This document shows, piece after piece, positions 6,497 through 15,982 of a DNA stretch of 15,982 nt (position 1 is its first letter; each line of letters opens with the position of its first letter). The translations under genes were made by a program, and so were the position numbers. This DNA comes from a virus. The DNA is taken from UHGV virus genome UHGV-0177145; one strand, written 5' to 3'. Below the pieces are notes generated by a model. It was not told the DNA's origin and did no database searches. It worked only from the letters and a program-made list of their open reading frames with translations.

Positions 6497-6694
6497 ATGC
6501 CTACAATCCTAGCAATTCTTCTAAAAAATCTAGGTAGCTTCTTCTGGAAACTCATTTTATCCCTTCTAAGTGAATACATGATTGAGAAAGTGTTCTTTAG
6601 GCTTGCAAGATACCTTGCGAGTAAAACAGACACACCTATTGATGATGAGTTCGTAGATAACTTAGAAAAAGCTTTTAAGGGGGAGAATAAATGA
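6497..6694 (+). CDS. Small membrane protein, holin-like topology (hypothetical, 65 aa)
   Basis: GAGGTGA ribosome-binding site. Hydrophobic N-terminal segment (PTILAILL...FFWKLILSLL) and a highly charged C-terminus. Stop overlaps the next start (ATGA). Confidence 0.45.
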   Translation: MPTILAILLKNLGSFFWKLILSLLSEYMIEKVFFRLARYLASKTDTPIDDEFVDNLEKAFKGENK

Positions 6695-7062
6695 AGTGGC
6701 TAGAGGAAGCTTTTAAAAATAATATTGGTGCAATTGTAGTTGGTATTTTTAGTGTTATTGGGATGTATACCACCATGCAAGTCTCGGATGGTAAGCAAGA
6801 AGTGTCTATCACAACAAAGTTACAGCAGTTAGATAATTATTCCAAAAGTAATTATTCAGCTATTCGTGATTTACAGTCTGATATGAGGCTGCTTCAGCTA
6901 GGGATGGAGAACCAGAAAGTCCAGTTAGAGAATGTTAAGGGTGAGAACGCAAAACTTACTAAGACTCTTGATAAATTCTCTGATAGTGTGAACAATCTGG
7001 CTCAATCAGTATCAGCCCTCCAAGCTATTACTGAAAAGAACACAAAGAATACTGAAAAGTAA
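6691..7062 (+). CDS. Membrane-anchored coiled-coil protein (hypothetical, 123 aa)
   Basis: AGGGGGAG ribosome-binding site. One predicted N-terminal TM helix (IGAIVVGIFSVIGMYTTM) followed by a heptad-like Q/L/N/K-rich region; topology resembles an i-spanin or antiholin, unproven. Confidence 0.5.
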   Translation: MKWLEEAFKNNIGAIVVGIFSVIGMYTTMQVSDGKQEVSITTKLQQLDNYSKSNYSAIRDLQSDMRLLQLGMENQKVQLENVKGENAKLTKTLDKFSDSVNNLAQSVSALQAITEKNTKNTEK

Positions 7063-7067
7063 AGTTT

Positions 7068-7100
7068 AAGGCTCCTTTTTACGGGAGCCTTTTTTGTTTT
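7068..7100. terminator. Rho-independent terminator at the convergence of the two gene blocks
   Basis: AAGGCTCC (7068-7075), 8-nt loop, GGAGCCTT (7084-7091), then TTTTTGTTTT. Lies 5 nt after the plus-strand stop (7060-7062) and overlaps the minus-strand stop codon (7099-7101) in its T-tract. The T-run is clear only for the plus strand. Confidence 0.7.
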
Positions 7101-7998
7101 ATTTACCTACTGACAAAGGTGCTTCAATCTTTCCTGCATGTTGGTAATTGTTAATACCACCGATAAAGTCACTTGCAGTGAGGTGTTTTAAGTCACTTAA
7201 AGTGTTAAGTGGGATACCAATCTCAAAAGTTGGTGCATGGAACTCTTCATTGTTCATCAGTTCATAAACCTGCTTCATATGATTCTGATAAATCTGAGTA
7301 TCTCCAAAGACACCTATCAAGTACCGTGGAGTGTATCCAGTCATCTTACAAAGAACTTCCAGAATAAAACCGTAAGATGCAATATTAAATGGAAGTCCTA
7401 AAAAGGTGTCTACAGAACGCTGATACCATTGTAAGTCAACTTCACCCTCGTTAGTGATATAAACCTGAAACAGAACATGACAAGGTGCTAGAGCCATTGA
7501 GTTTGCTGCAATATCTGCTGCATTCCAAGCATTAATAAGCATGTAACGGTCTGTGATATCACCCTTCATCTTCGCTACTAAGGTCTCTAGTTGGTCTACA
7601 ACACAACCGTTATGACCTTCAAAGTTTCTCCACTGAACCCCATAAATCCTTCCACCTGCATCCTCTAACCAATCTTGTTCAGAAGAGTAATTAGAGCTTA
7701 ACCAGCGTTTAAAATCATCTGACCAGATAGTCCAACGTTCTCCGTCATTCTCACCCCAAGTACGGTAACGGAGTTCACCCAGCTTATTCTCACCATTCAG
7801 GAACCATAAAGCTTCCCCAATAACTTGCCGTGTAAACACCTGTTTAGATGTTAAGAGTGGGAAACCAGTACGCATATCAAAACGAAATTGTGGTGGAGCA
7901 AATGCAGAGATAACATCTCCAGTCCGTGTAGTACGCAGTTCACCAACGGATAAAACATGGTTCAGAATATTTTTGTAACTCAAATCAGCTTGTGACAT
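7099..7998 (-). CDS. thyA: Thymidylate synthase (ThyA family)
   Basis: Motifs FPLLTSKQ, EALWFLNG, YGVQWR, catalytic MALAPCH, QRSVDTFLGLPFNIASY, GDTQIYQNHM. Overall collinear with E. coli ThyA as I recall it. Immediately downstream of a DHFR gene (frd-td-like order). Confidence 0.9.
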   Translation of the reverse strand: MSQADLSYKNILNHVLSVGELRTTRTGDVISAFAPPQFRFDMRTGFPLLTSKQVFTRQVIGEALWFLNGENKLGELRYRTWGENDGERWTIWSDDFKRWLSSNYSSEQDWLEDAGGRIYGVQWRNFEGHNGCVVDQLETLVAKMKGDITDRYMLINAWNAADIAANSMALAPCHVLFQVYITNEGEVDLQWYQRSVDTFLGLPFNIASYGFILEVLCKMTGYTPRYLIGVFGDTQIYQNHMKQVYELMNNEEFHAPTFEIGIPLNTLSDLKHLTASDFIGGINNYQHAGKIEAPLSVGK

Positions 7999-7999
7999 A

Positions 8000-8545
8000 T
8001 CAAAAGTGTCCTTTTACTTGTGGAACATAAATCTCAAAGGTTGCTTTACCATCATCGGAGGGTCTTGACTGCACCTTTGTAAATACACGGTTATCATACA
8101 GCTTCTCAAAGAAGTTTTCAAAAGGTAAATACACAGTAGTCTCTTCAGTAACTTTATGGAAAACTGTATGGAAAACTACACCAGCATACGGTAAAGCATT
8201 GACAAGGACACCTGCACCACCAATTACAAAGACATCTTCATCAATAGAGCTATCAAGATACTTCAAAAATGCTCCAAATGACTCTTTACTGGCTTTAGCA
8301 TACATTACATCATCTTTGCCAAAATCTATGCCTAAATATGGTACAGAATTTGTTAAGATGAGGTTTGCACGTTCTGGTAAAGGTTTACTCCCCAGAGTCT
8401 TGAAAGTTTCATTACCCATGACTACTAAGTTATTTTTAGTGAGTCTCTTAAACTCTTGCATGTCCTGTTTATGTCGAGGCCACGGCATACCAGTTGGAGT
8501 ACCAAACTCCCCATTTTCACCACTTGCAAAGATTAGTTTAATCAT
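8000..8545 (-). CDS. folA: Dihydrofolate reductase
   Basis: MIKLIFA...GMPW...VVMGNETFKTLG..PLPER.NLILT and a VIGGAG-type glycine motif. ATG overlaps the upstream stop (ATGA). Confidence 0.88.
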   Translation of the reverse strand: MIKLIFASGENGEFGTPTGMPWPRHKQDMQEFKRLTKNNLVVMGNETFKTLGSKPLPERANLILTNSVPYLGIDFGKDDVMYAKASKESFGAFLKYLDSSIDEDVFVIGGAGVLVNALPYAGVVFHTVFHKVTEETTVYLPFENFFEKLYDNRVFTKVQSRPSDDGKATFEIYVPQVKGHF

Positions 8546-8802
8546 TTTATAAACCCTTTCTTAATGAACCAGTTGATAATATTCTTCACAGCTTTATTGC
8601 TATGGTAGATTAAGTGTGGTGTAGGTTGGTATGAACCATAAGCCCAGAATGATAGATGCTCACCACAACCCACACATGTAGTACTCTCTTCAGCTATATG
8701 ACCATTAACAATCATATGAACTTCACCTTGCAAGTCTGTACACCCACAATGTGGACAACGGATAGGTGTTCCATCAGACTCATAGCAGTGTTCAATTTTC
8801 AT
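8542..8802 (-). CDS. Small zinc-ribbon protein (hypothetical, 86 aa)
   Basis: Two CxxC pairs (CPHC ... CVGC) about 24 residues apart. GAGGT ribosome-binding site. Confidence 0.6.
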   Translation of the reverse strand: MKIEHCYESDGTPIRCPHCGCTDLQGEVHMIVNGHIAEESTTCVGCGEHLSFWAYGSYQPTPHLIYHSNKAVKNIINWFIKKGFIK

Positions 8803-10626: not shown

Positions 10627-10674
10627 AAAATAAGCTATAACACCTGACTTGTCAATAGATTTTATAGCTTATTT
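10627..10674 (-). promoter_or_regulatory. Perfect 13-bp inverted repeat bracketing a putative proximal promoter
   Basis: AAATAAGCTATAA (10628-10640) / TTATAGCTTATTT (10662-10674), 21-nt spacer. On the minus strand the spacer holds TTGACA (10650-10655), 17 nt upstream of TATTTT (10627-10632). Confidence 0.3.
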
Positions 10675-10828: not shown

Positions 10829-10858
10829 TCAGTATACTCACCAAATTTTCTATGTCAA
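10829..10858 (-). promoter_or_regulatory. Strong sigma70-like promoter just downstream of the ligase stop codon
   Basis: Minus strand: TTGACA (10853-10858), 16-nt spacer, TATACT (10831-10836). A 10-bp inverted repeat TTGGTGAGTA (10801-10810) / TACTCACCAA (10835-10844) overlaps the -10 and the predicted start site. Confidence 0.45.
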
Positions 10859-12605: not shown

Positions 12606-12656
12606 AAGCCCTCCTATACAAGATATTGTATAAGGTACTCTTCCATGAGCACCTTG

Positions 12657-13160
12657 TCAACTTAGTTTTGCAAACTCTCCGTGGAGTTTTATAGCAGCTT
12701 CACAGTAAGCTTTATGGGCTTCTTCAGGTGTGTCAAATAAACCAAGTGATGTCCTTTTACCTCTGCATGTTATAGCTGCCCTCCACTTATTGCAGTCTTT
12801 AAAGTAATATACACCCTTGTAACCTGATTTGTTAGTTGTCTGCTTTACTCTATTTTGAGCATTTCCGTATTTATCAGTCTCCCTAAGATTAGAAATGTGA
12901 TTATTACTTCTGTTACCATCAATGTGGTCTATCATCTTAGTGGGTTTGTAACCATGTTCGAACCACCAAACGAGGTGATGAATTTTTATTACGACATCTT
13001 TGAATTTAAGTACTTTGTAACCGTAAGCATCAGCACCTCCTGCAATCTGCCCAGCTTTAGCTTGTCTATTCCTGTCATACTTGTTGTAGAAGACCCCTTT
13101 GTCGGGGTCGTAAATAAAATTATCCTTGTAATCTTGAAGTGTTAGTGTACGGCGTACCAT
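12657..13160 (-). CDS. HNH homing endonuclease with AP2-type DNA-binding domain
   Basis: HNH core HHLVWWFEHGY...IDHIDGNRSNNHISNL plus AP2-like SGYKGVYYFKDCNKWRAAITCRGKRTSLGLFDTPEEAHKAY. Start overlaps the last 19 nt of the polymerase gene. Confidence 0.8.
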   Translation of the reverse strand: MVRRTLTLQDYKDNFIYDPDKGVFYNKYDRNRQAKAGQIAGGADAYGYKVLKFKDVVIKIHHLVWWFEHGYKPTKMIDHIDGNRSNNHISNLRETDKYGNAQNRVKQTTNKSGYKGVYYFKDCNKWRAAITCRGKRTSLGLFDTPEEAHKAYCEAAIKLHGEFAKLS

Positions 13161-15841
13161 GTCTTACCTACCTTACCAGTGCCTGTAACAAGCGTCTTAC
13201 TCTTTAATCCAAGATTTTTTGATGCTTGACCATACATTCTATCAATAATCTCCTTAACATCAGGTACATCTTTGGTTGGAACCTCTAAAGAGACCTCATC
13301 GTGGTAACTACAGACCCATCTAGCACCAATAGCGGGCTTCCTACCATTTAGAACTGTAAGCTTGCGCTCTGTTAACTCTCTGTTAGCCAAGTTAATACCC
13401 TCATTCTGCACCTGCGCCTCACTTCCCATAAGTGTGTAATTCAATAACTTATGTGGAGATTTACACCATAACCAAGCTCCAGCAACTTTGATATAACCAC
13501 CTTTGGCAATTGCAGAAGTTTTTCCAAAAACCTCTTCAAGTGCTTTCTTAGTTGCTTTGAAGTCTTCCTCTAGTCTATCAAGCAGTTTTTTAATCTTAGG
13601 TAGACGCACAAAGTAAGTTTGTTTAGTCAATGCACCCTCTTCCGTAGATGATGCCTTGATAGTTTTTGCAAACTTCTCGTCTCCGGCTCCAAATAACAGG
13701 GCGTAGATGCCATTTTTGCTCTTCTTACGACCTTTTGTAATCTCGTGGAGAAGTTCCTCATCCTGTGTCTCCCTGCAACGAACAATATCCTCTTCTTTGT
13801 TAAGACCAAAGTAAATACTGTTCAGTGTATGCGCATCAGTCCCTGTGTAGACTTCATAGAGGTCATTTTCAGCATCATAACGCAGATACTTGTCAGTTTC
13901 TGGGTTAAGATACTTGTCAAGATGTTTACAGTAATATCTACCATCATCTTGCTTAGTGAACTCTACTGACTCTTTACCCTCAGTTACCGCTTTAGTGAAG
14001 TCTTCATCACCCATAAAGTTACAAAGGAGAACTAGCTGTGCTGAGTTTTGGTCTACGGAGATGATATCTGTACCATCTTCACAAGTCCACACCTCCCTCA
14101 TAGGTGCTCCATAGACAGCAGCACCAGACGGTACGTTTACAATACCATACTGAGTCATACGTCCAGTTGAAGTACCAAACACCATTGCGCCAGCACTAAG
14201 GCGACCATCTGGACGAATCTGGTTCAACCAACCTTTTTCATCATCCTTTGAGTTCTCAATAGTTCTGCGTCGGTGCATCAAAGTATAGTACTTAGCAATC
14301 TTCTGTCCAAGCTCACCTTCAATCGTATCATAAGATGACTCAGTAAGTTTTGGTGAAGTACGGATTAAGCAAGGTTCAAGCAAATCTGTGTACTTCTTCA
14401 CAGACCAGTTATGTTCAATGTACTGGACACCTTCATGTTCAACATAACTCAAACCACACCGTTCCACCATCTCATCCCATTTAGGATGCTTTGTAATCAT
14501 CTTTTTGTTGTCTTTGAAGCGACAAACCTTAACAGGACGACCATCAGAGTCTTTCTTGTAGTTCCAGTCATCTGGAATCCAACCAACTGATTTCAAGTAG
14601 TCTTTAACAACTGCTACCTGAGTCATACGAGAAACTTCGAACTCAATTGGTGTATATGGTGCATCAATCAAACCTGTGTAGCGACTTGACTCAAGCTCAA
14701 AGTGGTTAACAACATGGCTGTTATAGTACTTCACAGTTTTAACTGTTTTTACTGGCTTCCAGTCTTTGCACTTCTTACCAATCTTTGCATTCAACTCATT
14801 GCAAATTGCACGAGCATCCTTCATTGCTACAAAACCTTCCTTGTACTCTTCACCAGTTACAGAGTTGGTTGGTGTATAGCAATTCCGCTTTTCAATGTTA
14901 AAAATCTTTGTAGTTGGTTTACCAAATGGCTTGATTTCATATGTCTGCATCTCACCGTTACGTACCTGTTGACGATACTTTGTCTTAGGGTACTTGGTAA
15001 TTCTCTTCAGTCCATCTGCATGACCAAACGCTTCAACATACTCATTCCAAGCTTTTGCAAATTCTTCTCCAGTGACTTTACCTTTGGTCTTAATAGTTGG
15101 AGGAAGATGTGGTTCAACTTCTGAAGCAAGCTCATTAGTCAACTTGTCAAGTTCCTTTACATGGAACTCCATAAGTTCTTTATCAGCTTTCCAACCATTA
15201 ATAGCCTGTTGACTCATCCAGAAAGATGTCTCTTTAGCTCGCATATAGGTTTCATAAGTGTCTATGCCACACTTCTTAAGCTTGAGATATTCATTATCAA
15301 GTGCCCGTTTAGTTTTGGCGTTAATGCGAATATCTTCTACAACACGAGTGAAGATTTCTGCATTCCACACACCCCAATGTTCAATCTCTGGTTTACGTAC
15401 ACCAACACGAGCACCCCATGCTGCCAAGCCATGAGCACCTTTATAGCCCTTTGGAGTTGGTCTATCCATCCACTGAACACGAGATTGGATAAGAGAATCC
15501 TGAAAGAAATTGCTCCACGGCTTACACTTTGGATTATCAAAGTTCCATAAATCAGGTGCAATGTGATTGAAAACCCACCAGTCATACCCCAGACCATTAT
15601 GGATGCAAAGTCGTTTTGCCTTTAACGCAAACTCAACACCTTCACGCAAGCCACCCTTAATGTACTTGGTATACTTGTGACCGAGGATAGGCTCATCTGT
15701 AAAGACCCATACAGGTGGCTCTTCATCGTCAGATTTATAGTCTGCGAAAGCCATTACGTGCACTTTAGTGAACTCAAGGAGTAAACCATCAGTTTCTGTA
15801 TCACCAACTAAATGTAAGTTTTTAAAATCTACGTTTTCCAT
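13142..15841 (-). CDS. Family A (T7-like) DNA polymerase with 3'-5' exonuclease domain
   Basis: Exo motifs DTETDG and HNGLGYD. Polymerase motif B KSKNGIYALLFGAGDEKF (T7-like), motif C SYHDEV, motif A-like VDQNSAQLVLL. Start moved from the track (15871) to ATG 15839-15841, which has a GAGGGAG ribosome-binding site 6 nt upstream. Confidence 0.9.
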   Translation of the reverse strand: MENVDFKNLHLVGDTETDGLLLEFTKVHVMAFADYKSDDEEPPVWVFTDEPILGHKYTKYIKGGLREGVEFALKAKRLCIHNGLGYDWWVFNHIAPDLWNFDNPKCKPWSNFFQDSLIQSRVQWMDRPTPKGYKGAHGLAAWGARVGVRKPEIEHWGVWNAEIFTRVVEDIRINAKTKRALDNEYLKLKKCGIDTYETYMRAKETSFWMSQQAINGWKADKELMEFHVKELDKLTNELASEVEPHLPPTIKTKGKVTGEEFAKAWNEYVEAFGHADGLKRITKYPKTKYRQQVRNGEMQTYEIKPFGKPTTKIFNIEKRNCYTPTNSVTGEEYKEGFVAMKDARAICNELNAKIGKKCKDWKPVKTVKTVKYYNSHVVNHFELESSRYTGLIDAPYTPIEFEVSRMTQVAVVKDYLKSVGWIPDDWNYKKDSDGRPVKVCRFKDNKKMITKHPKWDEMVERCGLSYVEHEGVQYIEHNWSVKKYTDLLEPCLIRTSPKLTESSYDTIEGELGQKIAKYYTLMHRRRTIENSKDDEKGWLNQIRPDGRLSAGAMVFGTSTGRMTQYGIVNVPSGAAVYGAPMREVWTCEDGTDIISVDQNSAQLVLLCNFMGDEDFTKAVTEGKESVEFTKQDDGRYYCKHLDKYLNPETDKYLRYDAENDLYEVYTGTDAHTLNSIYFGLNKEEDIVRCRETQDEELLHEITKGRKKSKNGIYALLFGAGDEKFAKTIKASSTEEGALTKQTYFVRLPKIKKLLDRLEEDFKATKKALEEVFGKTSAIAKGGYIKVAGAWLWCKSPHKLLNYTLMGSEAQVQNEGINLANRELTERKLTVLNGRKPAIGARWVCSYHDEVSLEVPTKDVPDVKEIIDRMYGQASKNLGLKSKTLVTGTGKVGKTWYAVH

Positions 15842-15982
15842 TTTTACTCCCTCTAAAATCATTAACCTCATACATTACTGCAAAAAATTATAAAAAGCAA
15901 GTTGACAATGTACTTGACAAGGTGTTAATCTTTGCGAAGTGGGTTTTTACTTAAAAGGTTACTTAACAGTTTAACTATACAG

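Follow-up and report, generated by a model that had tools for sequence, protein, structure and literature searches.

Enzymes of the thymidylate synthase (TS) fold also hydroxymethylate dUMP in SPO1 and ViI-like phages, so the TS homologue encoded in the window (the whole stretch of 15,982 nucleotides of phage DNA analyzed here), in which two conserved ligand-binding residues are replaced, raises the question of whether it supplies dTMP or a precursor of modified DNA. We argue that the gene very probably encodes a functional, homodimeric, folate-dependent TS of the ThyA type from a Felixounavirus, which is paired with dihydrofolate reductase (DHFR) in a phage whose DNA contains ordinary thymine. 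Its membership of the TS family, the conservation of its catalytic machinery, the order of the two genes and the purifying selection acting on the gene were established in this analysis. The coordinates of the features are given in Table 1.

Table 1. Features of the window around the TS gene. Positions are those of the window and residue numbers those of the window protein, unless E. coli or L. casei is named.
Feature	Position	Strand	Remarks
Two small ORFs following the baseplate and tail-fibre genes	6497-6694, 6691-7062	+	
Second of these small ORFs	6691-7062	+	Holin by annotation in relatives; convergent with the TS gene
Hairpin	7068-7091		G+C-rich, 9-bp stem, A-run on one side and T-run on the other; from the terminator scan
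TS gene	7099-7998	-	299 aa, ThyA (folate-dependent) type; ATG 7996-7998, TAA 7099-7101
Gly298-Lys299	7102-7107	-	Sole residues past the canonical end; ...APLSV/GK against ...APVAI in E. coli
Codon CAG, Gln235	7294-7296	-	At E. coli His207
Codon TAC, Tyr152	7543-7545	-	At E. coli Arg127 (L. casei Arg179)
Main internal insertion, residues 81-111	7666-7758	-	Variable region after the neighbourhood of the W80 equivalent
DHFR gene	8000-8545	-	181 aa; PF00186 6.5e-22; phrog_316 1.5e-52
ORF with match to Lar_restr_allev	8542-8802	-	Pfam E=0.077, sub-threshold; PHROG 2993, no function
Sigma-70-like promoter match	10627-10655	-	TTGACA-17-TATTTT
Sigma-70-like promoter match	10831-10858	-	TTGACA-16-TATACT (11/12)
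HNH and AP2-domain homing endonuclease ORF	12657-13160	-	Directly downstream of the DNA polymerase A gene, overlapping its end
DNA polymerase A gene	13142-15871	-	

The source genome of the window is a Felixounavirus, a Felix O1-like myovirus of the Ounavirinae, and the 2.2 kb around the TS gene showed 96-97% identity to numerous records of Escherichia and Salmonella phages. In the annotated records among the listed matches the gene is named 'thymidylate synthase' and its neighbour 'dihydrofolate reductase', and the closest protein cluster (97% identity, 862 member sequences) carries the NCBI name thymidylate synthase as well. The identity of the gene as a TS is already annotated in public records and is not new. 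We also noticed that a segment of GU169904.1, the 147-kb record of 'Staphylococcus phage SA1', is 95.9% identical to this Felixounavirus region; the assembly behind that record is probably chimeric or contaminated.

The ORF indeed occupies the place given for it in the original prediction, which had left its strand unstated; it lies on the minus strand. On the plus strand, the baseplate and tail-fibre genes and the two small ORFs run towards it. The minus-strand set comprises DNA polymerase A, the HNH/AP2 homing endonuclease, an ATP-dependent ligase, small ORFs, an HTH regulator, DHFR and, as the last gene, TS. The hairpin stands between the convergent plus-strand ORF and the TS gene, and its stem and flanking runs suggest that it is likely a bidirectional intrinsic terminator. 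Both strong sigma-70-like promoter matches fall in the gap upstream of the run of minus-strand ORFs which ends with DHFR and TS, and the total of promoter-like sites in the region was no higher than the shuffled expectation. The arrangement of homing endonuclease and DNA polymerase A recurs in a distant 81-kb relative.

Family membership and active-site residues

The ORF product matched PF00303 with an E-value of 1.2e-72 and 244.8 bits (cutoff 24.3), and the match ran from end to end, residues 7-297 of the protein being aligned to positions 2-266 of the 266 in the model. With the NCBIfam equivalog model TIGR03284 the window protein scored 201.2 bits against a cutoff of 108.35, E. coli ThyA scored 455 bits and three relatives from the clade described below 218-232, while SPO1 gp29, a proven dUMP hydroxymethylase, fell below the cutoff with 58 bits. 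Similarly, among the PHROG families the window protein matched phrog_160 (4e-95, 319 bits), which also holds E. coli ThyA, and reached only 57 bits with phrog_5131, the family of SPO1 gp29. The best sequence matches in the PDB by phmmer were all TS (top E-value 2e-48), with 30-40% identity to solved TS structures. An AlphaFold2 (AF2) model, computed as a monomer, had a pLDDT of 91 and a pTM of 0.92; its best 50 PDB matches by Foldseek were all TS, and it superposed on E. coli TS with a TM-score of 0.94 and an rmsd of about 2.0 A.

To place individual residues, two independent alignments were made, one by phmmer against PDB chains and the other by MAFFT L-INS-i with E. coli K-12 ThyA (NC_000913) and 120 homologues. 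The motifs MALAPCH, LGLPFNIASY, DITDRYMLINAWN and GDTQIY are all present in the ORF product. As had been read by eye from the sequence, the nucleophilic cysteine (Cys146 of E. coli, C173 here) and the uracil-specifying asparagine (Asn177, N205 here) are kept, and in both alignments R151-Y152 stands opposite E. coli R126-R127 and Q235 opposite H207, which bears out both of the proposed replacements. In E. coli numbering, the window protein is canonical at R21, K48, E58, W80, Y94, R126, L143, C146, H147, Q165, R166, S167, D169, G173, F176, N177, D205 and Y209. The nucleophile motif L-x-P-C-H and the acid/base network are thus kept (L170, C173, H174, E62 and Y119 of the window protein), together with D197 (Asp169) and W92 (Trp80); the equivalent of Trp83 is ambiguous owing to the adjacent insertion. 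Besides the two replacements mentioned, Asp20 of E. coli is a threonine (Thr24).

The phosphate-binding arginine cluster therefore retains three of its four members (R25, R194 and R151), the fourth, Arg127, being Tyr152, and of the pair of 3'-OH ligands Tyr237 (Tyr209) is present and His207 is Gln235. Arg127 of E. coli TS is the fourth phosphate-binding arginine and is contributed by the partner subunit. It is a non-essential phosphate ligand, highly substitutable and nearly neutral in E. coli. In L. casei the corresponding R179 is permissive, and replacement sets at this position stay active (PMC6005164); moreover, ThyA of Vibrio and related bacteria has a natural glycine there and is an active TS, with a raised Km and reduced efficiency (PMC6005164; PMC6514825). 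Since Arg127 is replaceable and the natural glycine variant is active, the four-arginine cluster is not strictly defining for TS; the lower efficiency of the glycine enzyme means, on the other hand, that the kinetics of the window protein may be altered. His207 makes, together with Tyr209, hydrogen bonds to the 3'-OH of dUMP (PMC6514825). Our search of the literature on His207/His259/His256 returned descriptive mentions only, with no mutagenesis data for the His207-to-Gln replacement.

The original prediction had also described a C-terminal extension of about 35 residues, which turned out to be absent: PF00303 is aligned from end to end, and the protein runs only two residues past Ile264 of E. 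coli. The 35 extra residues are instead dispersed: the N-terminus accounts for 4, the variable region between E. coli residues 74 and 90 for a net 21, small internal insertions for a further 2, 1 and 5, and the C-terminus for 2. The main internal insertion contains a clade-specific Arg98-Trp99 and a predicted helix at residues 93-103, and the AF2 model has low pLDDT at 110-112. The segment at the C-terminus (E. coli 261-264) which in TS covers the folate on closure is present, ...GKIEAPLSV being aligned to ...PGIKAPVAI, and the terminal carboxylate is displaced by one to two residues by Gly298-Lys299. This segment of TS is important in the hydride-transfer step (PMC6514825).

Read onto the known reaction, these residues suggest the following scheme. 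The enzyme would reductively methylate dUMP to dTMP with 5,10-methylene-tetrahydrofolate, and the dihydrofolate formed would be recycled by the DHFR encoded directly upstream in the same operon. The phosphate of dUMP would be held by R25, R151', R194 and Ser195, with Tyr152' taking the place of the dispensable fourth arginine. Gln235 could make a hydrogen bond to the 3'-OH of the kind made by His207, and with Tyr237 would supply the bond that normally comes from that histidine. The product would serve a phage that makes ordinary thymine DNA.

A mostly phage or metagenomic clade and its residue at position 127

Two homologue searches gave 231 sequences, and in a neighbour-joining (NJ) tree of these the window protein belongs to a clade of 96 members, which come mostly from metagenomic or phage contigs. 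Position 127 in this clade is Tyr (75), Asp (16), Asn (5), Glu or Lys, and is Arg once. The C-terminus reads ...L-[S/L/T]-V-G and is often extended further; some members carry long acidic tails, e.g. GDEDEGKSGTD. Further traits specific to the clade are a threonine for Asp20, a residue of the loop that carries Arg21 at the dimer interface, and, within the insertion, an Arg98-Trp99 that does not vary. In an alignment of 26 sequences of the clade Tyr152, Val297 and Gly298 were invariant. The bootstrap support of the 96-member clade was, however, only 57%. To our knowledge this clade, with Thr20, a residue other than Arg at 127, Arg98 and the ...V-G end, has not been described.

Loss of Arg127 and gain of the C-terminal glycine go together nearly perfectly among the 231 sequences, and we considered strict co-evolution of the two. 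We rejected it, as the correlation comes essentially from one clade and is looser at 50% identity, where among 150 representatives the features uncouple partly, 18 having the added glycine with R-R and three having R-Y without the glycine. The combination is therefore regarded, from the alignments, as a subfamily signature and not as a proven compensation.

Could the window protein then be a true TS which is nevertheless functionally distinct, with a phosphate site and lid remodelled in such a way that its kinetics, half-sites behaviour or sensitivity to inhibitors are unlike those of canonical ThyA? We consider this possible though rather improbable. The replacement of Asp20 by Thr and of Arg127 by Tyr, Asp or Asn, the presence of Arg98 and the ...V-G end occur together in the 96-sequence clade, where Val297-Gly298, Tyr152, Arg98 and Thr24 are invariant or nearly so, and the natural Gly127 enzyme of Vibrio, with its raised Km and lower efficiency, offers a precedent. 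Against this, the uncoupling at 50% identity and the weak NJ support indicate that the correlation is largely a single phylogenetic event, and position 127 is nearly neutral in E. coli. Still more tentatively, one may imagine an undescribed, mostly phage-borne ThyA subfamily whose active-site edge was rebuilt by Thr for Asp20, the loss of Arg127', the new Arg98 and an obligatory Gly past the canonical end, and to which the branch of Felixounavirus and Mooglevirus adds the change of His207 to Gln; we hold this to be rather improbable. If it were true, dTMP would still be made, with substrate binding, lid closure or inhibitor sensitivity measurably unlike those of canonical TS.

Gln207 is restricted to an inner clade with an NJ bootstrap of 100, which contains Felixounavirus and Mooglevirus, and to which a Hafnia phage was added by separate alignment. 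Kolesnikvirus and Pectobacterium phage Arno18 keep His207 (CAT/CAC). Across the Ounavirinae both TAC and TAT are used for Tyr152 and both CAG and CAA for Gln235; His is one transversion from Gln, and none was found in the inner clade. The dN/dS against the Mooglevirus orthologues was 0.08-0.11, a range to be read with dS near saturation. The TS gene and its residues Tyr152 and Gln235 are under purifying selection. In a single record, that of Shigella phage vB_SflM_004, a Felixounavirus-like TS reads Q-N at 126-127 and ends in a C-terminus that is divergent and truncated, which suggests a frameshift, a sequencing error or a decayed copy.

For enzymology the clade is of minor interest, as a second and much larger natural example (Tyr, Asp or Asn) of TS without the fourth phosphate-binding arginine, along with a rare natural replacement of His207 by Gln; strong purifying selection acts on these proteins. 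That there is a sizeable subfamily of phage TS without the fourth arginine is the sole mildly novel aspect of this analysis.

Methylation versus hydroxymethylation of dUMP

We further compared the window protein with SPO1 gp29, with orf073 of the ViI-like phage CBA120, with the dCMP hydroxymethylase gp42 of T4 and with T4 td, the last spliced from its two exons. Cells infected with CBA120 are known not to incorporate labelled thymidine. Were the window protein a dUMP hydroxymethylase, water and not the folate hydride would resolve the exocyclic methylene, giving 5-hmdUMP for a modified DNA. Such activity is known for enzymes of TS fold in SPO1 and ViI-like phages, and some features of the window protein would fit it: both dUMP hydroxymethylases examined also have a residue other than Arg at 127 (R-Q), the TS C-terminus is altered here by the added Gly-Lys, and a dNMP kinase is encoded in the genome. 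We nevertheless hold this reading to be very unlikely.

At position 147 the three hydroxymethylases have Asn, Asn and Thr and the window protein has His; at position 165 both dUMP hydroxymethylases have Asn and the window protein has Gln. The hydroxymethylases lack Trp80, have changed AWN and PFNIAS motifs, and carry an unrelated sequence in place of the C-terminal lid of TS. The window protein, on the contrary, is TS-type at every discriminating column, viz. H147, Q165, W80, L143 and the whole C-terminal lid, and it passes the TIGR03284 cutoff which SPO1 gp29 fails and falls in a different PHROG. In a metagenomic association study (PMC8670742), phages with modified and unmodified DNA were best told apart by positions 147 and 177. 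The cytosine-specifying Asp at 177 is present in T4 gp42 and absent here, where it is Asn205; this retained asparagine does not fit a dCMP hydroxymethylase or dCMP methylase.

The formal alignment with the TS and hydroxymethylase families thus confirmed that both positions are truly replaced and at the same time that the protein is of TS type, and the meaning implied for the two replacements was not supported. T4 gp42 has Arg at position 127 and both dUMP enzymes have Gln, so this position alone does not discriminate. His207 is kept by all three hydroxymethylases examined, so a glutamine there is not their signature. With R127 highly substitutable and His207 kept by the hydroxymethylases, neither replacement points to hydroxymethylase chemistry. 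We would add the caution that residues called 'invariant' after model enzymes are unreliable signs of changed chemistry in the TS superfamily, in which the discriminating positions are 147, 165, 177, Trp80 and the C-terminal lid.

The neighbouring gene carries further weight. Its adjacency had been taken to argue for a true TS, and this is strongly supported: DHFR was confirmed directly upstream of TS in the same orientation. Its TGA stop is separated by 1 nt from the ATG of TS, and a Shine-Dalgarno-like AAAGGA precedes that start. Hydroxymethylases release THF and have no need of DHFR (PMC5175136). As only the formation of dihydrofolate calls for a DHFR, an adjacent, co-oriented DHFR makes sense with a synthase and favours TS. 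The same order, DHFR and then TS, is found in T4, Mooglevirus, Kolesnikvirus vEam_W_28, the Hafnia phage, Bas63 and the distant 81-kb metagenomic relative; in Kolesnikvirus SB18 the ORF at the position of DHFR is annotated 'hypothetical protein', and the record of Arno18 has no product names. DHFR was absent within 8 kb of TS on two phage-like contigs of roughly 150 kb which carry distant members of the clade, and the DHFR argument is therefore limited to the Ounavirinae.

Other homologues gave a few further observations. On a 152-kb phage-like contig an NT5C-family deoxypyrimidine 5'-nucleotidase (12654-13268 of that contig) lies about 4 kb downstream of a TS of R-D type which has no DHFR within 8 kb. 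In six TS homologues of 408-541 aa, about 150-250 inserted aa interrupt the TS domain near position 105 of the Pfam model. DHFR-TS fusions, which would prove TS function, were considered for the long representatives of the R-Y clade in this size range and rejected, as Pfam found the TS domain only, split by the large insertion; the insertions may be inteins or translated intron or homing-endonuclease insertions.

The wider gene content agrees with dTMP synthesis. The genome paper of Felix O1 and the complete annotation of Bas63 list one TS, DHFR, dNMP kinase, aerobic and anaerobic ribonucleotide reductases, PRPP synthetase and nicotinamide phosphoribosyltransferase. The accessory enzymes of the hydroxymethyluracil pathway, dCMP deaminase, dUTPase/dTTPase and dTMPase, are not annotated in Felix O1 or Bas63, where many ORFs are hypothetical, and this too stands against a hydroxymethylase. 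Bas63, a close relative, is sensitive to restriction-modification systems, which argues against a protective base modification. A literature search for an enzyme assay, a complementation test or a nucleoside analysis of a Felixounavirus returned none, and the main text of the PhageMaP preprint, consulted for gene essentiality in Bas63, makes no mention of its TS and DHFR genes.

Finally, that the gene is a decaying or non-catalytic TS homologue kept for another role, e.g. as a scaffold of a dNTP-synthesising complex, is extremely unlikely, for although two conserved ligand-binding residues are replaced and an aberrant TS occurs in vB_SflM_004, the catalytic residues are all intact, the dN/dS is about 0.1, the replacements are kept across genera with synonymous codon turnover, and the high-confidence AF2 model has the TS fold. 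A functional TS paired with DHFR is our preferred reading. For phage biology it carries little weight, being the expected dTMP-supplying enzyme of a well-known genus which gives no sign of base-modified DNA.

Comparison with known systems

The dUMP hydroxymethylases of the SPO1 gp29 and CBA120/ViI orf073 type belong to the same superfamily as the window protein and share with it Cys146, Asn177, Arg126, Arg166, Glu58, Tyr94 and a residue other than Arg at 127 (Gln in these enzymes). They differ from it in having Asn147 and Asn165, no Trp80, a longer and different C-terminal region and a retained His207, in their assignment to phrog_5131/3676, and in failing TIGR03284 (58 bits). No DHFR is annotated beside the gene of SPO1 gp29 or CBA120 orf073 in the stretches examined.

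The frd-td pair of T4 resembles the locus in gene order, in strand and in the near-abutting stop and start, which overlap by 4 nt in T4 and are separated by a 1-nt gap here, and in both phages the TS encoded is of the ThyA type. T4 td is unlike the window protein in keeping R-R and His (NDRRQIVSAWN, GNTHIY), in its canonical C-terminus and in its group I intron. T4 also encodes a separate dCMP hydroxymethylase, gp42, whereas Felixounavirus has one TS homologue only.

The nearest parallel for the missing arginine is ThyA of the VAAP clade, represented by TS of Vibrio parahaemolyticus (PMC6005164), in which Arg127' is naturally lost and the enzyme is an active TS. There the replacement is Gly, the clade is of cellular Gammaproteobacteria, and it is accompanied by K48R and by Met at H147; the window protein belongs to a phage clade, has Tyr at this position and keeps both K48 and H147.

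With E. coli ThyA (EC 2.1.1.45) the window protein shares the fold, the nucleophilic cysteine, the residues for base recognition, proton abstraction and folate binding, and the C-terminal lid motif ...I-x-A-P-L/V-x-V/I. It departs from the E. coli enzyme in the replacement of Arg127 by Tyr, of His207 by Gln and of Asp20 by Thr, in a net insertion of about 21 aa after position 74 and in the added Gly-Lys.
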